Source: Candidatus Wildermuthbacteria bacterium (lineage in GTDB: Bacteria > Patescibacteriota > Minisyncoccia > Minisyncoccales > UBA10102). From it: a stretch of DNA of 64,000 bases. The DNA lies in contig JACPMK010000002.1 in NCBI GenBank assembly GCA_016186115.1, positions 72,983 through 136,982 on the forward strand, written 5' to 3'. Each line of letters starts with the position of its first letter. Position 1 is the first letter of the stretch. The notes under the pieces were generated by a model, which was not told the origin of the DNA, searched no databases, and worked only from the letters and a program-made list of their open reading frames with translations. Below are positions 1,987 through 48,965 of this stretch, in pieces. A program made the position numbers and the translations under genes.

Positions 1987-2937
1987 ATGAGAATTATTTT
2001 TTTGGGGACATCAGAGTTTAGCACAATCGTTTTGGAAAAACTTGTAGAGTCCGGCATGAAGCCGGTTTTGGTTATAACCGTGCCAGATAAACCCGTCGGC
2101 CGCAAACAAATTCTTGTTTCTCCGCCCGTGAAGCTTACGGCACAGAAATATGGTATTGAAGTTTTGCAGCCAGAGGAGAGTATACAACACACTAAATACC
2201 AAATACTCAATACTGCGCCTGATCTTATCGTTGTTGCTGCTTACGGGCAGATTCTTCCTAAAGAAATTTTGGATATTCCGAAATACGGGGTATTAAATGT
2301 TCATCCTTCTGTGCTGCCAAAGTATCGCGGCCCTTCCCCAGTGCAAACTGCAATTTTGAATGGCGATGAAAAGACAGGGGTTACAATTATGCTGATGGAT
2401 GAGAAGGTGGACCATGGGCCAGTCCTTGCTGCGCAGGAATTTTCAATTTTCAATTTTCAATTTTCAAACGGGAAGCCAACAACGCCGGAATTGAAAAAGA
2501 AATTAGCGGAAGTCGGGGCTCAATTGCTTGTTGAGGTAATTCCGCAATGGATCGATGGGAACATAAGGCCCCGGCTGCAAGATGACAGCAAGGCCACGTA
2601 TACAAAGATTATTCGCAAAGAAGACGGGAGAATCGATTGGACGAAGAATGCGGAATATATTGAGCGGCAGGTTCGGGCATTTCAGCCATGGCCCGGTACC
2701 TATACATTTTACAATCATACTCTTGTAAAAATTCTAAAATCTGGTATCGTATTAACTTCGGGAGGAGTATCCCCTATTCCGGGGACAGTATTTTTCTCTT
2801 CTGAAAAGAAAATCGCTGTGGTCGCGGGGAAAGATGCGCTCTTGGTTGAAAAGTTGCAACTCGAGGGAGGCAACCCCATGCCTTCGAGGGAATTTCTTCT
2901 CGGCCATAGAAATTTTATTGGAACAACCCTCCAATAA
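1987..2937 (+). CDS. fmt: Methionyl-tRNA formyltransferase
   Basis: The N-terminus MRIIFLGTSEFS, the HPSVLPKYRGPSP motif and the C-terminal Fmt domain are present, and the length is typical. Confidence 0.95.
   Translation: MRIIFLGTSEFSTIVLEKLVESGMKPVLVITVPDKPVGRKQILVSPPVKLTAQKYGIEVLQPEESIQHTKYQILNTAPDLIVVAAYGQILPKEILDIPKYGVLNVHPSVLPKYRGPSPVQTAILNGDEKTGVTIMLMDEKVDHGPVLAAQEFSIFNFQFSNGKPTTPELKKKLAEVGAQLLVEVIPQWIDGNIRPRLQDDSKATYTKIIRKEDGRIDWTKNAEYIERQVRAFQPWPGTYTFYNHTLVKILKSGIVLTSGGVSPIPGTVFFSSEKKIAVVAGKDALLVEKLQLEGGNPMPSREFLLGHRNFIGTTLQ
2438..2465 (+). repeat. Perfect heptanucleotide tandem array (AATTTTC)x4 inside fmt
   Basis: Read directly from the sequence as aattttc aattttc aattttc aattttc. 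It encodes FSIFNFQFS. Confidence 0.9.
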
Positions 2938-5670: not shown

Positions 5671-7059
5671 TCAGATGCGCTGTAAAAGTTTAATCAAGAG
5701 GCGTACTGGCGCTCCAGCCGCCCCCTTTGCAAGATATTCTCCTTCGATTGCTGTCATGCGCGGAGCAATGTCGATATGAACCCATGGATACCCCTCGGTA
5801 AATTGCTTGAGAAATACTGCCGCGGTAATCGCGCCGCCATAGCGCGTTTTGCCCATGTTGGCCCAATCGCCAAAAGTTCCCTTAATTTCCTCTGCATACT
5901 CTTCCCAAAGCGGCATTGGCCAAACATAATCCCCCGTTTCTTCGCCTAACTCGCGAAAAAGCTGTTCTAATTTTTGATCTGTCGTAAAAATGGCAGAAGC
6001 GCGTTGCCCAAGTGCTGCCATTGCTGCCCCTGTCAGTGTGGCCACATCGATAACAAGCCGCGGATTATAGCGTTTGGCATATCCTAGGGCGTCAGCAAGA
6101 AGAATTCTTCCTTCGGCATCAGTGTCAAGGACTTCGATTGTTTTTCCCGATATGGTGCGCAGCACGTCTCCGGGATGATAGCTTGAGCCCGAAGGCATAT
6201 TTTCTGCTGCAGGGATTAAGCCGACAATATTTTTTTGCAATCCCATTTTTGCAGCAAGCACAACGGAATGCATGACTGCCGCTCCCCCAGACATATCCAT
6301 GTGCATATCAGAGGTCCCTTCCCTTGGCTTGAGATTGATTCCTCCGGTATCAAAAGTTACGCCCTTGCCTATCAAGACAATGGGTTGTTCGTTTTTGCCT
6401 GCTCCGTAATATTCCAATATGATAAAACGCGGCTCTTCGGAAGATCCTTTTGCAACTCCCGTAATTCCGCCCATGCCCAACTCTTTCATTTCTTTTGGTT
6501 CCAAAACAGTTACCTTAGCAGAAGTTTCTCGAGCTGCTTTTCGTGCTGCCTCGGCAAGAATTTTCGGGGTCATATCTCCCCCGGGTGTATTAGAAAGAAT
6601 GCGTGTATTGTTGACTGCATTTGCAATGAGCATTCCTTTTTCGATTCCTTTTTCTATTTCTGCTTTGTCTTGGCTCGAATGCAAAACAATCTCTTCAACA
6701 AAATTCCATCCTTCTTTGGGAGGAGTTTTGTATTGTACAAATTCAAAATTGGCCATTTCAAAATTGATAGCCAGCACTTCTGCTTTTTCTTCGTTTGAAA
6801 GCTGGACATTGGAAAATTCGAGATCGTCAAAAGGAATTGCAATGCTTTTAATGCGCTGGCCTTTGGCCAGAGCAATAACTTGCCTTGCAAGAATAAAAAG
6901 TTTTCTGCGATTGATTTGGTTTTTATCCCCTATTCCCAAAGCCAAAATTCTCTGGCCGTCTGGCAGTACTTCAATCCACGATTCTTGTCGTTGTTCAACG
7001 AGTTTGAGTACGGTTATTGCTTTATCCTGCGGTTTTTGAGATACGACACTGATTTTCAT
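5671..7059 (-). CDS. pepA: Leucyl aminopeptidase (M17)
   Basis: Motifs NTPGGDMTP, GKGVTFDTGGINLKP and DTDAEGRILLADAL are present. Confidence 0.9.
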   Translation of the reverse strand: MKISVVSQKPQDKAITVLKLVEQRQESWIEVLPDGQRILALGIGDKNQINRRKLFILARQVIALAKGQRIKSIAIPFDDLEFSNVQLSNEEKAEVLAINFEMANFEFVQYKTPPKEGWNFVEEIVLHSSQDKAEIEKGIEKGMLIANAVNNTRILSNTPGGDMTPKILAEAARKAARETSAKVTVLEPKEMKELGMGGITGVAKGSSEEPRFIILEYYGAGKNEQPIVLIGKGVTFDTGGINLKPREGTSDMHMDMSGGAAVMHSVVLAAKMGLQKNIVGLIPAAENMPSGSSYHPGDVLRTISGKTIEVLDTDAEGRILLADALGYAKRYNPRLVIDVATLTGAAMAALGQRASAIFTTDQKLEQLFRELGEETGDYVWPMPLWEEYAEEIKGTFGDWANMGKTRYGGAITAAVFLKQFTEGYPWVHIDIAPRMTAIEGEYLAKGAAGAPVRLLIKLLQRI

Positions 7060-7067
7060 GGAGTATC

Positions 7068-7625
7068 TTAGCGATAGCTGGGATGTTTTTCTTTTTTCTT
7101 ATTTGTTTTCGTGGAAAAGCGTGCCATGGCGTAGAGAAAGCTTGAAAGACGGTTGAGGTATGCCCCCAATTCCGGCGGGAGCTTCTTTTTTTTACTTGCC
7201 AATTTTTTATTGAGAATAAAAAATTTCAATTCAGCCCGTCTCGCCACTGCCCTTGCAAAATCGAGCCAAGCCGAAATCTCGTCTTGGCCATAGACCACAA
7301 ATTTTCGTTCCGGTTTTACTTTTTGTTCGAGGGTGTCAATCATTTCTTCCAGTTTACGAATTTTTTCTTCTTTGAATTCCGGAGGGTTCCAGCCGGTGAG
7401 AAGGCATCCAATATGGGCCTGAATAATAAAGAGATCCTGCTGGATTTCTTCCAGAATCTTTTTTGAGGATGTGGGGATTTTTTGATTTTTTACAATACCG
7501 AGTAAACTATTCAATTCATCCAGCGCGCCTACTGTTTCTACCTCGGGAGAATCCTTCTCAATTTTTTTGCTCCCAAAATAGCTTACGCCCTTATCCCCTT
7601 TTCCTGTATAAAAAACCCGTGCCAT
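7068..7625 (-). CDS. ATP:cob(I)alamin adenosyltransferase, PduO type
   Basis: The N-terminus YTGKGDKGVSYF...VETVGALDELNSLLG matches, and the ~185 aa helical-bundle length fits. Confidence 0.85.
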   Translation of the reverse strand: MARVFYTGKGDKGVSYFGSKKIEKDSPEVETVGALDELNSLLGIVKNQKIPTSSKKILEEIQQDLFIIQAHIGCLLTGWNPPEFKEEKIRKLEEMIDTLEQKVKPERKFVVYGQDEISAWLDFARAVARRAELKFFILNKKLASKKKKLPPELGAYLNRLSSFLYAMARFSTKTNKKKEKHPSYR

Positions 7626-8685: not shown

Positions 8686-11600
8686 CTACGGAGTTCCGAG
8701 CGGAATAGGATTTTTTATCCAGTTGATGACGTCTCTTTGTTTTATTACTCTCACTTCGGGCTTGGTTAAGGCGTATGTGAGAAAATCTTGGAGAGCCGCT
8801 TGGCGCGCGAGCGTGGTTGCTGATCTTTCTGGCTGCCAGTCGGGTTTGCCCCATTCCTGGCTGTGCAAACAGAGATGCATTGGGGCTTTGTTTCCATTGC
8901 TATGCTGGTCAAGATTATATTTCAGCAAAGTTGCAATATCTGTGCCTTCGATGCCGGCAGCGAACCAATCTTTATCGCAATAGCCAACTTGTGCTCCTAG
9001 TCCAAGTTTTGTACGCAATTCTGCGGGTACATCCATTCGGTCTTGCGGCAATTCCCAGAATCCGGGATGCGATCCAGTGGGAGCGAGATTGCCCTGCGTG
9101 GGAAATCCGTTTTCCAGTGTGCCGGGCCAGTATTGGGTGGTGGCGTTGTCTCCATTGGAGCTGTAACCGGTTGCGGTGCTCGCGGCATAGGTGAATCCGA
9201 GTTCCTGCAAAGCAGTGTACATTTCAGAATTGTAAGCGTCTTCTGCCGCCCTGTAGCCGTAGATCTCGCTGGTGGGGATGTTCAAGCCAAGCCGGGGCAC
9301 CGTTTGCCCTCCAGGCGATTGCACAAGTACGCCATCTCCTGCAAGGGGTCTGGTGAGGTAACCTTGAGCTGGCACAATCCAGTTGTCCTTCCATCCCTGA
9401 ACCGTAGTGGGGACTCCTCCGCCGCACGCAGCATCGCTCGTAAGGCCGCAGTAGCCGTGATTGCCAATCTCATGTCCGTTGTCGTAGGCATTGCGATGGG
9501 CATCTCTCAACCCGGCGCCATAGGATTCGTGAGTTCCGATGAGATAGAAAGTTCCTTTCACTGGCGTGCCGTCATAGGTTGCTGAATTTTCTGTTCCTGC
9601 GGGATTCACCTTTCCGGCGAACAATTCATTGACAAAGAAGTTGACTCCGTCTATGCGATTGTTGTCGTCGGAGCCAAGGGTGATGAACTGGGGCGCTTGG
9701 CTGGGAGAAAGACCACCCGGTGGAGTCCTTGCGGGCGCAATAGCATCATTTGCCGTTGTTGTTACCTGAATCACATCTGCAAATTGCCAATAGGAGGTAC
9801 CTCCCAGTTCTGACGCATTGCGCGGTACTACCCGTACATAGTATGTCGAGTTTGGCGACAATCCAGGAATGCGATAGCTTGTGTGTTTGCCCGCGTTTCC
9901 ACTGCTCACAACGAGATTAGTAAATGCAGCATCAGTGGCAACATCCACCAAATAGGTGTCGACAAATGCTCCATGAAACGCAGGGTCTGTCCAAGCAATG
10001 TTGACGTAGTTTGATCCTTGTTCTGTTTCCTGAACTTTCAATGCTCGGGTGCTGAACAGGAGTTCTGGCATTCGGTTACCATTCACATCGCCAATTTTTG
10101 CTGAAAACAACCATGCGGTGCCGTATCTCGTGCCTTGATCTGTTTTGACAATAAGCGTATTCCAGCCCTGTTGCAAAGCAAGAGGAATGTCGTATGCATC
10201 AATGAGAATGGGAGATTCGGCAGCAATATCGTACGTATTATATCGAGCTGACGCTCCATCGAAAATGCTTACTCCATTCAGCCAAACCTTTCCCGCATTG
10301 CTTACTCCCCATTTGAGATGCACGGCATTGTCTGTGCTGTGATCCGCGGGAGAATAAATGTATGCTGCGGCATATCCTACTTTTTCTGGTTGTGTTGATG
10401 TCTGCCCTCCTCCATATTCATAGCCGGAGAATGGCGCTGCGCTTTGTAATTCAGCCATTCTTGTAATGCTGCTGGCAAAATTATCAGCCAATTTCCATAC
10501 CAATCCGCCCGCGATGCCGTCTTTCTGGGGAGTTACGGCATCGAGGACAGGTCCCATTTCATCCGAGCCAATATGGTTAATGTTCATTCCTCCGTCGAAG
10601 GGGCCGAGAGAAAGCCAATAGCGCGGAGCAGGAAAATCGTTTGGATGCTCATTTTTCCACAATTCTGAATTAAGAAGCATGGAGCCAAAATCAAACGACT
10701 GACAAGCGCTCATATGGTAGTGATTGCCCCATGGTTCGTTTACAATGGGCGTGCCCTTGGTGACAAAAGTGCCGTTGGGCACAAGCGCTCCCCCTCCTCT
10801 CACGTGCGTCCATACCCAGCATGCCTGATTGTTGTTATTTTCATTGCTTGTTGCTGTAAGCCGCACCATGCCTTGAGATTCGGGATCAGAGCCCACGTCA
10901 TGCCAGACATATCCGTCCATCATTGCCTTGATCTTTTTTCCGCTCCACGCTCCTACATCAAATCCTGCGTGAGCCACTGCCGTTTCTCCCCCGTTCGGCT
11001 CAATAAATGTTTGCATTTGAGCATTTTCATGAAGCGCGCCATCAAAAGGATACCGATAGTTTTCAAGATTGGGAAATACTGGATCGCTCGCATCATTTAC
11101 CGCAAAACCAACATCTTTGCCCAGAGACAGCGGGAATGGCCCCTGCCCTCCTACCTGTTCAAAGCCATACGCATTTGCTTCTTTCCATACATAGCCGTAC
11201 ACGCGAAGTCCATTGATGGATACGGGCAAGGCATTAAAGGCGACACGGAGCGTGTGCTGTTCTGTTTTGTTATTTCCGCTCACCTGCACGGTCGCTTCAA
11301 CCTTGTGTCGCGGAATAATAATGCTGTATCCAAGAAGTGTAAGCGTTCTTGTGGTCCCGTCTTTGAGGGTATAATTGTAGCTTTCGCCCACAGCCAGCTC
11401 CACCTCTGTGGGCCAATCCGGCGGCAATCCCCCGGAAGGAGGCGGCGTGGCAAGCGTGGTAAAAGTATTGGGAATACTTGGTTCTGCGGCTTGATTGTTG
11501 TTTGCATCGTTGCTGTACACCCGATAATAATATGCCGTATTTGCGGCCAATCCCGTGATCCCAACTGAATGAGAAGTGACCAAAGACGAATCCAATGTCG

Positions 11601-23104: not shown

Positions 23105-24529
23105 ATGATGAAGGTGTCAAATACGCTGTCTCGGCGGAAGGAAAATTTGCGGCCGAGAAAGAATAAAGAAATACATCTTTTTGTCTGCGGACCGACCGTA
23201 TACGATTTTTCGCATATCGGCCATGCCAGAACCTATATTGCTTTTGATGTGATTGTGAAATATTTGCGAAGCATTGGTTTTCGCGTGGAGTATCTTCAGA
23301 ATATTACCGATGTTGACGACAAAATTATCAATCGGGCAAAAGAATTAGACACGAGTCATATCGCCTTGGCAGAAAAGTTCGAAAAAGATTATCGGGATGA
23401 CATGAAAACGCTCAAGGTGGACAGTGTGAGCAGATATGCAAGAGCAACCAGACATATCAAAGAAATCATTGGGCAGATCCAACGGCTATTGCAAAAGGGT
23501 TATGCTTATGAAATTACTGGAGACGGGATTTACTACGATATCTCGCGATTCAAACGCTATGGCAAGCTTTCCGGCAGAACAAGCACGCAGGCAGAAGATG
23601 CAATTTCAAGAATTGATGAATCGATACATAAGCGCAATAAAGGCGATTTTGCGTTGTGGAAGCTTACCCCGCGAAGCCCAAAGGGCGAAGTGGGATTCGT
23701 GGAGTCAAGCTGGCCAAGCCCGTGGGGAAAGGGGCGGCCCGGCTGGCATATCGAGGATACAGCAATTACCGAAAAATATTTCGGGCCGCAATACGATATT
23801 CATGGCGGAGCGAGAGATTTATTATTTCCTCATCATGAAGCAGAAATAGCGCAGATGGAGGCACTTTCTGGCAAGCGACCCATGGCAAAGTATTGGCTGC
23901 ACACGGGATTCCTCACTATTCATGGAGAAAAGATGTCGAAATCTCTTGGAAACTTTATTACCATTCGGGATTTTACAGAGAAATATTCAGCCCGCCTCCT
24001 TCGTTTTTTGGTTTTGAAAACGCATTACCGCTCCCCTATTGACTACAGCGAAGAAATGGTAGAACAAGCACGGCATGAGTTGGCAAGAATAGATGAATTT
24101 GTAGGCAAACTTCATGAAAAATCCGAAATCCGAAGCACGAAGCATGAAACAAATTCAAAATTAACTTTAAAATTCAAAAAGGATTTTACAAAAGCGATGG
24201 AAGATGATTTCAATACTCCAATTGCAATTGCATCGTTGTTTCAGTTGATTAATCAGGGTAATATCTTTTTGGATAAAGACCGTATTGGCCGCACCGCCGC
24301 AAAAGCGCTGCTCGATTTCTTTCAAGAGATCGATACGATTTTTGGATTTATTTTCTGGCGGGAAAGAGCTGCAATTTCTCCCGATATTAAACAACTCATA
24401 CGGGAACGTGAGGAATATCGCAAAAAAGGAAATTGGGAAAAAGCAGACGAACTGCGCGCAGTTTTGAAGACACGCGGCTGGACCGTGGAAGATACCGCCA
24501 CTGGTCCAAAAATCAAAAAATCTCCCTAG
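23105..24529 (+). CDS. cysS: Cysteine--tRNA ligase
   Basis: HIGHARTY and KMSKSLGN class-I motifs are present. Confidence 0.95.
   Translation: MMKVSNTLSRRKENLRPRKNKEIHLFVCGPTVYDFSHIGHARTYIAFDVIVKYLRSIGFRVEYLQNITDVDDKIINRAKELDTSHIALAEKFEKDYRDDMKTLKVDSVSRYARATRHIKEIIGQIQRLLQKGYAYEITGDGIYYDISRFKRYGKLSGRTSTQAEDAISRIDESIHKRNKGDFALWKLTPRSPKGEVGFVESSWPSPWGKGRPGWHIEDTAITEKYFGPQYDIHGGARDLLFPHHEAEIAQMEALSGKRPMAKYWLHTGFLTIHGEKMSKSLGNFITIRDFTEKYSARLLRFLVLKTHYRSPIDYSEEMVEQARHELARIDEFVGKLHEKSEIRSTKHETNSKLTLKFKKDFTKAMEDDFNTPIAIASLFQLINQGNIFLDKDRIGRTAAKALLDFFQEIDTIFGFIFWRERAAISPDIKQLIREREEYRKKGNWEKADELRAVLKTRGWTVEDTATGPKIKKSP
24117..24180 (+). repeat. Degenerate heptanucleotide array inside cysS (family copy 1)
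   Basis: tccgaaa tccgaag cacgaag catgaaa caaattc aaaatta actttaa aattcaa. It encodes SEIRSTKHETNSKLTLKFKK. Confidence 0.8.
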
Positions 24530-45334: not shown

Positions 45335-46048
45335 TCATTTTGAGATGATCTTTCCGTGTTTGTTGTGCCACTCCCCAATTTTTTTATGATCACCAGAGAG
45401 TAAAGCTTTAGGCGCTTTCCATTGAATTCCGGGAGCTGGCTCAAAAACCTCTGGGCGAGTGTATTGAGGATGCTCCAAGAACCCTTCGACAAGCTCAGGG
45501 CAAGCTTCCCCTTTTTTAGATATGAGATGTTGCGCCAAAAACTCGGGTTTTCCAATAACTCCTGGGATAAGCCGCGTAACGGTTTCAATTATAATCATGG
45601 CTGGCAGTTCCCCTCCCATAAGAACATAATCCCCTATTGAAATTTTTTCATCTGCAATGTACCTTGCCACTCGTTCATCAATTCCTTCGTATCTGCCACA
45701 GATCATAATGATCTGATCAAGCTTGGAGAATTCGTATGCCTTCTTTTGGGTAAATTTCTTCCCTCTTGGCGTGAACAGGATAATTTTTGAATTTGTTTCG
45801 GATTTCGGACTTCGTGCTTCGGATTTTAACTCCTGTACCGCCTTGTATATAGGTTCTATTTTCATTACCATTCCCAGTCCCCCGCCAAAGGGTTTTTCGT
45901 CAACGGTTTTATGCTTGTCATCGGCCCAATCCCGCAGATTATGGACGCGTATATCAAAAATTCCTTTCTTCTTTGCTCTTTTGATCAATGATTCATTGCA
46001 AAAAGGTTCAAACAATTCTGGGAAAATTGTAATCACATCAAATATCAT
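45335..46048 (-). CDS. trmD: tRNA (guanine37-N1)-methyltransferase
   Basis: MIFDVITIFPELFEPF, CGRYEGIDERV and DYVLMGGELPAM are present. Confidence 0.95.
   Translation of the reverse strand: MIFDVITIFPELFEPFCNESLIKRAKKKGIFDIRVHNLRDWADDKHKTVDEKPFGGGLGMVMKIEPIYKAVQELKSEARSPKSETNSKIILFTPRGKKFTQKKAYEFSKLDQIIMICGRYEGIDERVARYIADEKISIGDYVLMGGELPAMIIIETVTRLIPGVIGKPEFLAQHLISKKGEACPELVEGFLEHPQYTRPEVFEPAPGIQWKAPKALLSGDHKKIGEWHNKHGKIISK
45785..45827 (-). repeat. Degenerate heptanucleotide array inside trmD (family copy 2)
   Basis: Minus sense reads aaaatccgaag cacgaag tccgaaa tccgaaa caaattcaaaa. It encodes KSEARSPKSETNSK. Confidence 0.8.
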
Positions 46049-46796: not shown

Positions 46797-47525
46797 TTAT
46801 GAATGATTTATGTATTCGTTCCAATGTTTATTTTGCAGGGCTTGCCGCGCCGCCGACTCTTCTGCCTCTTGTTTTGAGGAACCCTCCCCTTCTCCGGCAA
46901 GCTCCTGATCAAAGTAGACGCCAATTCTAAAATGTTTTGCATGATCCGGACCCCATTCTTTCAGCACCGCGTACGTGGGAGTTACCCCTACCTTTTCCTG
47001 CGCGACTTCCTGTAGCTTGGATTTCGCATCTTCAAAAAGCCGCGATTCCAAAACTTGGGGTAATTTGGTCAATACAATCTTTTCTATTAATTTCTGGCAT
47101 ACTTTGTACCCTTGGTCAAGATAGAGGGAGCCGATAAAGGACTCAAAGGTATTGGCAAGAATGTATTCTCTTGCCTTGCCGGTTTCTTTCGCTTCTCCCC
47201 TTGAGAGGAGCAGAAATTCTCCAAAATCGAGCTCTCTGGCAATTTGTGAAAGCATTTTTGCATTTACCATCGCCGCTCTCCAGCTCGTAAGCTTTCCTTC
47301 TGAATAATTCGGATATTTTTTGTACAGGTATTCGGTTACCACAAGTTCGAGCACTGCATCACCCAAAAATTCAAGCCGTTCATTGTGCTGCAGTTTGAAC
47401 TCTTTATTCTCGTTGAGATACGAGCGATGAACAAATGCCTGCGTCAAGAGTTCTTTATTCTTGAAGGCGATCCGCAATTTTTTTTCCAATAAAGAAAAAT
47501 CTTTCACAGGTGCAAGGTCATCCAT
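46797..47525 (-). CDS. rnc: Ribonuclease III
   Basis: NERLEFLGDAVLELVV plus a C-terminal dsRBD. Confidence 0.92.
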   Translation of the reverse strand: MDDLAPVKDFSLLEKKLRIAFKNKELLTQAFVHRSYLNENKEFKLQHNERLEFLGDAVLELVVTEYLYKKYPNYSEGKLTSWRAAMVNAKMLSQIARELDFGEFLLLSRGEAKETGKAREYILANTFESFIGSLYLDQGYKVCQKLIEKIVLTKLPQVLESRLFEDAKSKLQEVAQEKVGVTPTYAVLKEWGPDHAKHFRIGVYFDQELAGEGEGSSKQEAEESAARQALQNKHWNEYINHS

Positions 47526-47526
47526 T

Positions 47527-47982
47527 TCATTTTTGAGAATTTTGTTCTTGAGCGCTGCTTTCGAGCTCGCGATAGACAGTTCCCAATACCCCGTTCACGA
47601 ATCGCCCCGATGATTCCCCGCTGAAATTCTTGGCAAGTTCGATTGCTTCATTGATGGCAACTTTCGGCGGCACCTCTTCTTTATTGCTGTAGAGCAATTC
47701 ATACAATCCCAAGCGCAGCACATTGCGATCCACCAAAGTAATCTGTTCAAGGGGCCATTCGGGAGCTGCCTTGTCGATAATTGTATTCAGCTGCGGTAAA
47801 TGTTCGATAACTCCTACTACCAGCCGCCGTACAAAATCTTTATTGGTATCTGCCAGACCGGGGCCAAATTCTTGAATATTCCGTTCCACAATGGGATTCA
47901 GATCCCTTTCTTTTGCCCCAGCAAAGTCCCACTCATAAAGAGATTGCATTGCAATGGATCGGGCAAGATGTCGGCTGGCCAT
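47527..47982 (-). CDS. nusB: Transcription antitermination factor NusB
   Basis: [21 protein letters not shown] set the start at ATG 47982, 1 nt after the rpmF stop. Confidence 0.85.
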
Positions 47983-47983
47983 T

Positions 47984-48223
47984 TTATTTTTCTTCTTTTT
48001 TCGCGATTTCTTTTTCTTTTTGCTTCCGCTCTTTTTTCGAAATTCCCTTGAGCACATCGATCACTTCCCTTCCTCTATAGTATCCGCAATTTGTGCATAC
48101 CATGTGGGGAAGCATGGACCGGCTGCAGTGAGGGCATTTCACAAATGTTGGGCGATGCAAATAAAGGTGCATTCGTCTTTGCCCTTGTCTTGATTTCGAT
48201 CTTCGTTGTTTTGGTACCGCCAT
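47984..48223 (-). CDS. rpmF: 50S ribosomal protein L32 with a Lys/Glu-rich C-terminal tail
   Basis: [23 protein letters not shown]...CTNCG. Confidence 0.9.
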
Positions 48224-48244: not shown

Positions 48245-48904
48245 TCATATTCGACACACTTGCAAGTCCCTAATTGGACGGAAGGTTTTGCGGTGGATGG
48301 CGCAAGGACCGTATTGTTTGAGCATTTCGAGGTGCATGGCGGTGCCATATCCCTTATGGCGATCGAACCCATATTGCGGGTATCTCTGGTGATACTGAAG
48401 CATGAGGCGGTCTCTTGTTACCTTGGCAATGATTGAAGCTGCAGCGCAAGAAAATACCTTTTCGTCTCCCTTTACGATCGGTTTTTGTGGAATGTCGCGA
48501 AAAGATATTTTCATGTTTCCATCGATCATTAAAAAATCTGGGGTTCGGAGATTTTTTTCCAGATCGCGTACCGCTTTTTCCATAGCCAGTTTGGTGGCTT
48601 GGAAAATATTGATTTGATCAATTATTTTTTCTGAAACTATGCCAACCCCCCATGCGATATGAGGATGGACAGTGAGCAAGCTATACCATTGAAGCCGTAT
48701 TTTTGGAGTGAGTAATTTGGAATCGCGGATTTTCCCTTGAAGATTCTTAAAATCCGAAGCACGAAATCCGAAATTCGAAACTGCTACTGCCGCAGCGGTT
48801 ACGGGACCGGCAAGCGGTCCTCTTCCTGCCTCATCAAGCCCAACAACAACTTGATACCCAATTTTCCACAGCTGCTTTTCTTCGGCAAAATTTGGCGTTT
48901 GCAT
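48245..48904 (-). CDS. rnhB: Ribonuclease HII
   Basis: GLDEAGRGPLAGPV and DSKLLT are present. I prefer the start at ATG 48904; the ORF-track start 48958 would overlap dnaE. Confidence 0.85.
   Translation of the reverse strand: MQTPNFAEEKQLWKIGYQVVVGLDEAGRGPLAGPVTAAAVAVSNFGFRASDFKNLQGKIRDSKLLTPKIRLQWYSLLTVHPHIAWGVGIVSEKIIDQINIFQATKLAMEKAVRDLEKNLRTPDFLMIDGNMKISFRDIPQKPIVKGDEKVFSCAAASIIAKVTRDRLMLQYHQRYPQYGFDRHKGYGTAMHLEMLKQYGPCAIHRKTFRPIRDLQVCRI
48747..48780 (+). repeat. Degenerate heptanucleotide array inside rnhB, antisense to the gene (family copy 3)
   Basis: ttaaaa tccgaag cacgaaa tccgaaa ttcgaaa. It is read antisense as SNFGFRASDFK. The 19-mer ttaaaatccgaagcacgaa is identical to copy 2. 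Confidence 0.8.
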
Positions 48905-48965
48905 ATCTTTATTGTACCAATCATATAACCTTTTCTGAAGGAAAGAAATTGTGTACAATAATGGA

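Follow-up and report, generated by a model that had tools for sequence, protein, structure and literature searches.

USS/DUS uptake sequences occur in either orientation within genes, at tolerant positions, and as inverted pairs between genes, and they are maintained by drive at the nucleotide level. Intervening sequences (IVS) of 23S rRNA are extended hairpins that replace the loops at helix tips; they are sporadic and are thought to be horizontally transferred. A recent survey of CPR rRNA genes recorded many short insertions without ORFs at known IVS sites, without characterising them (PMC11270868). RPE are multicopy palindromes of ~150 bp that often interrupt unrelated housekeeping genes in frame, where the protein fold can accommodate them (PMC10969869). 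MITEs and intergenic palindromes, represented in our comparison by Correia, ERIC, QMITE and REP/BIME, are short non-coding sequences with inverted-repeat ends that are dispersed in spacers and sometimes lie in frame within genes (PMC10969869). Heptamers shared across lineages have also been described, such as TAACTGA in Beggiatoaceae, Cyanobacteria and Bacteroidetes, and GGACCGG (x4) in Geobacter metallireducens (PMC4679880; PMC2700814).

Here we analyse a heptamer array inside rnhB, the gene for RNase HII, in a 64,000-nucleotide stretch of a Candidatus Wildermuthbacteria genome, referred to below as the window. We favor the reading, with a probability of about 0.65, that the array is one arm of a dispersed palindromic repeat, on its own and in frame, which the gene tolerates and which was probably copied or converted into it. 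The rnhB copy belongs to a family of CG-heptad palindromic repeats, and the arm lengthens the loop that leads from strand 2 to the DSK motif in an RNase HII that is otherwise intact.

The rnhB array and the loop that carries it

The features of the locus are as follows.

48245 to 48904, minus strand: rnhB (RNase HII), intact; Pfam PF01351, E = 9e-34
48722 to 48784, minus strand: codons V58-R78 of the hypervariable loop (VAVSNFGFRASDFKNLQGKIR), between strand 53-60 and the DSK motif
48746 to 48781, A-rich strand on plus: rnhB solo arm, outer module only; nhmmer E = 4.3e-8, model positions 4-39
48711 to 48732, plus strand: codons of the DSK motif, to which the arm at 48764-48785 corresponds as a weak inverted repeat of 22 nt and 77%

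The mechanical ORF (48245..48958, minus strand) reaches a TTG at 48958; the start is probably the ATG at 48904, since the resulting length of 219 aa is that of the database copy (P0001). Judged from its sequence, the enzyme looks intact despite the arm. Residues D42, E43, G45-R46-G47, D79-S80-K81, D146 and D165 are invariant across 41 homologues, the AlphaFold2 model has a mean pLDDT of 89.5, and Foldseek matches the model to 3o3f with TM-scores of 0.73/0.78. We predict that the arm most likely contributes nothing to catalysis.

The original prediction placed a heptamer array at 48747-48780 within rnhB, antisense to the gene, and the sequence, the ORF and the Pfam match agree with it. The plus strand there reads ttaaaatccgaagcacgaaatccgaaattcgaaa, which the minus-strand ORF translates as ...AAAVAVSNFGFRASDFKNLQGKIRDSKLL... 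/ ...GLDEAGRGPLAGPVTAAAVAVSNFGFRASDFKNLQGKIRDSKLL..., between the catalytic DEAGRG segment and the DSK motif, where the prediction had it and where the RnhB translation and the alignments put it as well. A spacer about 8 residues longer than that of E. coli RNase HII had been expected, and this is what the comparison gives: the stretch from DEAGRG to DSK has 52 residues in the window RnhB and 44 in the E. coli enzyme (7uwe_C), a difference of +8. Against T. maritima RNase HII, the loop of the window protein is longer by 9-10 residues, and the loop sequence aligns as an insertion against both enzymes. The ortholog alignment and structure mapping proposed as checks locate the insert in a variable loop of lower model confidence, after strand 53-60, with pLDDT of 71-77 as against above 90 in the core; the model also has, at moderate confidence, a short helix spanning residues 67-70.

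RNase HII of other lineages does not conserve the extra residues, so that what would have counted against the prediction does not hold. Across 40 Parcubacteria homologues the loop spans 15-65 aa (median 21) without conserved sequence, and the window loop, at 21 aa, has the median length within its own Parcubacteria clade. At the DNA level, the strongest self-match falls at lag 7 in all eight of the close rnhB loops examined, with values of 0.43-0.66, where the background is 0.25 and the 99th percentile 0.415. The units of these relatives are AAATTGC, AAATTGG, CCAATTT, AATTTTC, AATTCCA and AAATTCA, where the CCAATTT of L124 is the reverse complement of the AAATTGG of L131. Periodicity at lag 7 is also present in three of five further Parcubacteria-like rnhB loops and absent from the 13-aa loops of distant bacteria, and L122 and L135 have unrelated hairpin repeats in the same loop. 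The predicted extra length stands, refined in that the loop is coded by repeats across the whole clade. The canonical CG-type module is found in the rnhB loop of the window only; the relatives that share the trmD arm described below lack it at this position, and the relatives' rnhB loops score worse than E = 0.01 against the arm profile.

The closest non-self RnhB in the protein collection is 65% identical (BLASTP), and the relatives recovered by the metagenome scan are all at 59% identity or less. Neither search returned an empty-site allele or close relative of rnhB, and therefore the insertion event, its date and its boundaries were not observed.

The arm consists of four imperfect heptamers with CGA every 7 nt, lying between the DEAGRG strand and the DSK motif and abutting the AAAV codons. 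Its sequence is TTAAAATCCG AAGCACG AAATCCG AAATTCG AAAC, and its T-rich strand is the coding one, such that the 35 bases at 48747-48781 are read as VSNFGFRASDFK. Tandem Repeats Finder reports period 7 at 48750-48780, with 4.4 copies and 70% matches. With 70% matches and four units that all differ, the arm is not a slippage-prone heptanucleotide tract, and unit number is fixed across the arm family, unlike in a tandem tract of variable copy number. Elsewhere in the window, the same program finds a perfect 4.3-copy repeat in fmt at 2438-2467, which is complementary to AATTGAAAA downstream. The fold z-scores for a local hairpin in rnhB are only -1.6 and -2.3, which argues against such a structure, and given these weak scores the inverted repeat between the DSK codons and the arm is probably incidental.

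A palindromic repeat family and its copies in the window

We defined the family by an nhmmer profile built from 124 arms of other genomes, with no window sequence included. Applied to the window, the profile detects three copies, in rnhB (E = 4e-8) and in two other genes, and the next match, which does not belong to the family, has E = 3. The two further copies are listed here.

45783 to 45830, minus strand: trmD solo arm; nhmmer E = 2e-12, model positions 4-51
24115 to 24176, plus strand: cysS solo arm; nhmmer E = 1.3e-10, model positions 4-61

The same three loci emerge from simple counts. The array is not a chance feature: a run of three CGAA spaced 7 nt apart is found five times in the window, where 0.02 would be expected, and each of the five falls within these loci. 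The 16-mer AAATCCGAAGCACGAA is present exactly three times, at 24127, 45811 (reverse complement) and 48751. When inverted, the trmD copy is identical to the rnhB arm at 33 of 35 positions.

Each of the three copies is read in frame within a housekeeping gene, with no copy in a spacer and no partner arm beside any of them. The coding strand in trmD is the A-rich one, giving the peptide LKSEARSPKSETNSK, a 7-aa insertion relative to S. aureus TrmD. The A-rich strand also codes in cysS (EKSEIRSTKHETNSK; full copy EKSEIRSTKHETNSKL), where the fourth CG is mutated to TG and the arm lies in the variable linker ahead of the DALR domain. With the A-rich strand coding in cysS and trmD and the T-rich strand in rnhB, the proposal that both orientations are tolerated is borne out. 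So is the suggestion that both would be free of stops: none of the six frames is closed by a stop in the consensus of the outer CG-heptamer module. The consensus of the whole arm has stops in two of the six, and the rnhB copy (model positions 4-39) falls within the stop-free outer module. No rRNA genes lie within the window, which contains an rnc gene at 46797-47525, and no Rfam family reaches its gathering score, either there or across 12 element-rich loci.

To find the family elsewhere, we scanned a 596-Gb genome collection with the 24-nt pattern AAATCCGAAGCACGAARNNNGAAA. At least 120 stretches match, where about one is expected by chance, as estimated from the size of the collection. Among the matches listed, the carriers by MAG label are Planctomycetota (with matches on long contigs also labeled Planctomycetaceae), Verrucomicrobiota/Lentisphaerae, Omnitrophota, Desulfobacterota, Aminicenantes, Hydrogenedentes, Chloroflexi, some Gammaproteobacteria and many Patescibacteria. 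Long sequences among them are a Victivallales chromosome of 8.6 Mb, a Desulfobacterales one of 5.3 Mb and Patescibacteria contigs of 0.7-0.9 Mb. The element flanks share the continuation ...GAAACAAATTCAAATGACCAAAATTCAAAAC, and 79 of the 120 cores in the listed stretches pair with a downstream inverted copy in minimum-free-energy folds.

Over 882 kb of the listed loci, the arm profile finds 243 arms. These include 89 pairs in which an A-rich arm is followed by a T-rich arm, with a median span of 155 nt, a single pair in the reversed order, and 65 solo arms. The full element is an imperfect palindrome of ~155 nt, in which ~20 nt separate an A-rich arm from the T-rich one that follows. The outer module of each arm has four CGA at 7-nt spacing (AAAT[C/T]CG, AA[GCA/TAT]CG, AAATCCG, then AAAC), and the inner part is A/T-rich (CAAATTCAAA...ATGACCAAAAC). 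This layout is modal, in 69 of 116 arms, outside the selection imposed by the search pattern, and the units of those arms follow the order AAAT[T/C]CG (outer), AATATCG or AAGCACG (middle) and AAATCCG (inner). The rnhB arm, TC[CGA]AGCA[CGA]AATC[CGA]AATT[CGA]AAC, has the family's four CGA in the same position-specific order and ends in AAAC. It stops at model position 39 and lacks the inner part, and the profile search finds no second inverted arm ~20 nt away; it is a solo arm. What had been called an element is a real copy, redefined as one arm of the palindrome, and because it is one arm, an antisense copy is equivalent to the other arm. The description as a heptamer array holds for the 7-nt units and gives way in another respect: the element is a defined sequence with internal 7-nt periodicity and a fixed four-CG layout, not a freely slipping microsatellite.

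Solo arms also lie in frame in a Mur ligase (QNSKSEARNSK), an ATP-dependent DNA ligase (two arms), a PIF1-like helicase and the C-terminal tail of a RadA-like ATPase, and one complete palindrome is in frame within a 790-aa ORF. A different setting is the 23S rRNA gene of L024 (Saccharibacteria), which the Rfam LSU rRNA model aligns end to end with 1318 bits. Three complete elements there coincide with insertions of 179, 211 and 220 nt, which take the place of short parts of the 23S model, and a fourth is located where the alignment has an insertion near model position 583. Around position 1765 there is another insertion, of 113 nt, without an arm match. The L024 elements sit at helix tips and, from these alignments, would behave as 23S intervening sequences.

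The distribution of the family is patchy, with a single arm, an intergenic one, in 797 kb surrounding rnhB in 80 other lineages. Elements occupy spacers of every type between genes: around 64 of them, the flanking genes are in tandem (43), convergent (11) or divergent (10), which matches the background. Such background-like layouts, with no depletion between divergent genes, argue against the elements serving as dedicated terminators. When 2,643 ORFs from 120 loci were clustered all against all, no neighbor gene recurred, and in both respects the placement is selfish-like. No cognate transposase turned up in the 8-kb flanks of the elements. Nor do the flanks give a signal of target-site duplication, the longest direct repeat averaging 4.68 nt in an element's own flanks and 4.53 nt in mismatched ones, a comparison that duplications of 2-3 nt or fuzzy ends could escape. 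Mobility of the family is suggested by its distribution. A plasmid or phage vector is unsupported: BLAST of the full element against PLSDB plasmids and INPHARED phages returned no match, and IMG/VR has only 5 matches to the pattern. At a relaxed threshold, the only Rfam hits to the full element are plant miRNA-precursor hairpin models, far below their cut-offs. We found no published description of the element in the full-text literature, with sequence strings and peptides included in the search, and the family appears to be undescribed so far.

Conservation of the trmD arm and competing explanations

The TrmD genes of four other Parcubacteria lineages (L134-L137) have this arm too, placed at an identical codon position and with orientation and frame unchanged. 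Nucleotide identity is 82-96% in the arm and 64-74% in the flanks, the latter range being without the pair L135/L137 (85%). Third-position identity is 73-100% in the arm versus 37-55% in the flanks, again without L135/L137 (69%). When only codons for identical amino acids are considered, 9-12 of 11-12 are identical in the arm compared with 35-70% in the flanks, where nine of ten pairs fall at 35-55%, with Fisher p = 2e-4 to 0.017 per pair. In two of these genomes no other arms are found within ~20 kb of the trmD arm. Together, the synonymous conservation and the lack of a nearby arm in those two genomes lead us to conclude that, for the in-gene trmD arm at least, the nucleotide sequence itself is maintained. 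This could be due to a function, to gene conversion or to site-specific re-insertion.

An orthologous arm that is conserved at synonymous sites in five lineages means that the family is not simply decaying junk. Arm GC is 32-42% in hosts of 33-71% GC, and bit scores are independent of host GC; the stability of the arm in hosts of 65-71% GC argues, along with the synonymous conservation, against neutral junk. It is the sequence, rather than the hairpin, that stays constant in the family, since an element's own arms pair no better (-45.2 kcal/mol) than arms taken from different elements (-48.9 kcal/mol), and the same result speaks against a structured-RNA role. Synonymous conservation and independence of GC leave room for function at the rnhB site too. 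Constraint or drive at the nucleotide level is plain for the trmD arm and may extend to the rnhB arm. No orthologue carries the latter.

One competing explanation is that the array is a functional cis-acting nucleic-acid element under selection, which the coding frame merely accommodates. It could act as double-stranded DNA, its heptads bound by a dimeric DNA-binding protein, or as an RNA site for Csp, S1 or CsrA. Arrays of 7-bp heptads bound by ribbon-helix-helix proteins exist. Consistent with such a role are the synonymous sites of trmD in five lineages, an outer module nearly unchanged across genomes of 33-71% GC, the conservation of sequence implied by the pairing energies, and the proposal that heptamer repeats in other phyla are regulator-binding sites (PMC4679880; PMC2700814). 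However, the arm is missing from the rnhB loop of every relative examined, including those that keep the trmD arm, and 797 kb surrounding rnhB in 80 other lineages gave a single arm. The orientation of flanking genes is without bias, copies in opposite orientations are a misfit for a role in RNA, and no binding factor is known. On balance we consider a selected cis-element unlikely at this locus.

A local origin is improbable. Here the array would have arisen in place, from an old heptamer array that codes for this loop throughout the clade and changes through slippage and mutation, or through template switching with the nearby DSK codons, and its resemblance to the family would be coincidental. 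In favor of this are the heptamer periodicity of all eight close loops, with their differing units, and of three of five further ones, the reverse-complementary units of L124 and L131, the 22-nt inverted repeat with the DSK codons and the fmt array with its downstream complement. Yet the units of the rnhB arm are mutually different and follow the family's position-specific order, including the irregular AAGCACG. The arm is also 33/35 identical to a trmD arm that itself has no local inverted partner, its profile E of 4e-8 stands against values worse than 0.01 for the relatives' loops, and the fold z-scores are weak. It is highly improbable that RNase HII gained the peptide SNFGFRASDF adaptively, for instance to contact nucleic acid or a partner protein in a new way, with the DNA similarity secondary. 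The insert does lie immediately before the conserved DSK motif, a short helix is modeled there with moderate confidence, and phenylalanine-rich peptides recur in the loop of relatives, but trmD and cysS read the same DNA in other frames and in the other orientation as unrelated peptides, the loop is unconstrained in sequence and length in 40 homologues, and enzymes with crystal structures do without the insert.

We return to a tolerated solo arm as the best explanation. From the 33/35 identity to the inverted trmD arm, we infer that the rnhB arm arrived by intragenomic copying or gene conversion from another copy, for which a loop that was already heptamer-periodic may have supplied homology. 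Once in place, the arm would persist through being in frame, stop-free, in a permissive loop and without the second arm that a long RNA hairpin requires. With one arm, a copy is unable to fold into the long hairpin that the full element makes, and this would presumably matter inside an mRNA; long hairpins are substrates of RNase III. The family as a whole is unusually well conserved and stays near one consensus, which may reflect constraint at the nucleic-acid level or drive, through gene conversion or re-insertion.

We also put forward, tentatively, the possibility that the 35-nt module is the recognition site of a hypothetical, widespread trans-acting machinery, which would spread the family and keep it to one consensus across PVC bacteria, Desulfobacterota, Patescibacteria and others. 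Candidates for this role are recombinases or transposases, DNA-binding proteins, and drives based on uptake or gene conversion. If this were true, the family would seed rRNA intervening sequences and add new loop segments to essential proteins such as RNase HII, TrmD, CysRS, Mur ligase and DNA ligase.

Comparison with known systems

The locus offers a concrete case, outside Rickettsia, of repeat DNA written into essential enzymes of reduced genomes in either orientation. The family links intergenic palindromes, short ORF-less insertions in 23S rRNA and in-frame insertions in protein loops, which are usually treated apart. For annotation, its arms probably give rise to false predictions of hypothetical proteins (FGFRASDF, KSEIRNPK and similar) and make loops look more variable than they are when CPR proteins are aligned. 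A 35-nt module that is conserved across phyla, across host GC and at synonymous sites suggests an underlying constraint or drive.

The resemblance to RPE is in the mode of tolerance. As with RPE, whole or partial copies of the present family are in frame in conserved proteins, and the rnhB insert occupies a tolerated loop with the ORF intact and the catalytic residues invariant. Unlike RPE, which belong to one genus, the present family spans many phyla, its arms have a 7-nt periodic four-CG module, its in-gene copies are mostly single arms, and copies are also found in a 23S rRNA gene. By analogy the two may be tolerated alike; the host here is Patescibacteria-like, and we do not claim membership.

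Like 23S IVS, the L024 elements coincide with insertions in 23S rRNA. However, the present family is also found in intergenic spacers and protein genes, and the window copy is in a protein gene, in a window that has no rRNA gene. The parallel to USS/DUS would lie in the use of either orientation within genes, tolerant positions, inverted pairs and what may be maintenance of the drive type. The present family differs in its density of ~3 per 64 kb rather than ~1 per kb and in its module of 35 nt rather than 9-12 nt, and sharing across phyla is unexpected for lineage-specific uptake receptors.

The heptamers of Beggiatoaceae and other lineages share with our family the 7-nt units, a patchy presence across distant lineages, positions both between and within genes, and the lack of an evident transfer mechanism. 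Those are direct repeats of one unit, whereas the present arms have four different units in fixed order, a non-repetitive inner part and, as a rule, an arrangement as inverted pairs.

The conserved outer end of the arm is reminiscent of the terminal inverted repeats of MITEs; there are 89 arm pairs, and the rnhB copy corresponds to one end. Unlike MITEs, the elements have no detected target-site duplication and no detected transposase in their 8-kb flanks, and unlike the GC-rich REP elements they are AT-rich. Further differences from MITEs and intergenic palindromes are that near-identical 24-mers recur across phyla and that an orthologous in-gene copy, that of trmD, is conserved at synonymous sites. 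It is this conservation, across phyla and at synonymous sites, that makes the family worth more study.

Solo arms in trmD and rnhB

A solo arm, that is, one half of the approximately 155-nt palindromic repeat without its inverted partner, lies in trmD at an orthologous position that is occupied in five Parcubacteria lineages:

Window 45783-45830: trmD solo arm
L134 10252-10321: trmD solo arm
L135 10222-10292: trmD solo arm
L136 2224-2292: trmD solo arm
L137 1148-1218: trmD solo arm

The inner arm of the window copy is 21 nt (7 codons) short. Across the ten pairs that these five lineages form, the arm is conserved at synonymous sites. Where the amino acid is identical, identical codons are used at 91-100% of arm positions in nine pairs and at 82% in the remaining one; the corresponding values for the trmD flanks are 35-55% in nine pairs, and the closest pair has 70%.

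When both are taken as RNA of the minus strand, the rnhB arm of the window (48747-48781) is complementary to the trmD arm (45795-45829), and the two give a 33-bp duplex of -51 kcal/mol. A distance of 2.9 kb separates the two arms, which share a strand and have rpmF, nusB, and rnc between them; from synteny with L134 and L135, rpsP and khpA would be expected in this interval as well. Because the rnhB arm is missing from relatives, the pairing is probably incidental. In the protein collection, the exact window TrmD is recorded from 10 contigs (entry P0121) and the exact window RnhB from only one (P0001), and strain-level variation in rnhB is possible.

Other insertions and repeats in TrmD and RnhB loops

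A repeat-like insertion was located in trmD of the window, and further repeats in the RnhB loop of relatives, the hypervariable stretch before the DSK motif of RNase HII where the rnhB arm of the window is situated:

Window 45482-45508, minus strand: second TrmD insertion, reading ...KKGEACPELVEGF..., coded by gaagcttgccctgagcttgtcgaaggg
L122 about 10090-10210: tandemly duplicated hairpin repeat in the RnhB loop, GC-rich and about 57 nt long
L135 about 5925-5985: near-perfect palindrome aaacttagctcggttaagttcaacttaaccgagctaagttt, translated SKLSSVKFNLTELSF, in the RnhB loop

The TrmD loop with the second insertion is 17 aa long, whereas the median for 46 homologues is 8, and the DNA of this insertion is similar to the L122 hairpin repeat (ccctgagcgaagtcgaaggg). 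The two L122 copies use two frames, giving SFDKLRIDPERSRTG and LTLSEVEG. The L135 palindrome, again a hairpin repeat, occupies the same position in the protein but is unrelated. We also observed that dnaE, which adjoins rnhB in L122 (5484-9878), has an intein with a LAGLIDADG domain.

Short-unit tracts in fmt and at the rpmF/nusB overlap

Window 2438-2467, plus strand: perfect (AATTTTC) x 4.3 heptamer tract within the fmt ORF (1987..2937)
Window 47982-48021: TTTTCT-type hexamer-rich tract in the overlap of the mechanical rpmF and nusB ORFs

The fmt tract is translated as EFSIFNFQFSN and, when aligned with B. anthracis-type and E. coli Fmt structures, is a 6-aa insertion. The sequence AATTGAAAA, 26-40 nt downstream, is complementary to it. 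Its repeat unit is unlike that of the CG-type element, and the match to the arm profile, built from 124 arms of other genomes, was not significant (E = 7.6). The hexamer-rich tract codes for lysine-rich tails of 17 and 18 residues, and nusB probably starts at a later ATG (MASRHLARS).

Element copies in a 23S rRNA gene

L024 3425-6545: 23S rRNA gene of a Saccharibacteria MAG (CAZUCU010000009.1) in which the complete palindromic element occurs four times

For three of the copies, the insertions they coincide with measure 179, 211, and 220 nt and lie at about positions 165, 285, and 1893 of the model; the remaining copy is at an insertion at about position 583. Another insertion, of 113 nt, is found at about 1765, and a LAGLIDADG-like ORF follows the gene (6567-7193). 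In this 23S rRNA gene, the palindromic elements act like rRNA intervening sequences.
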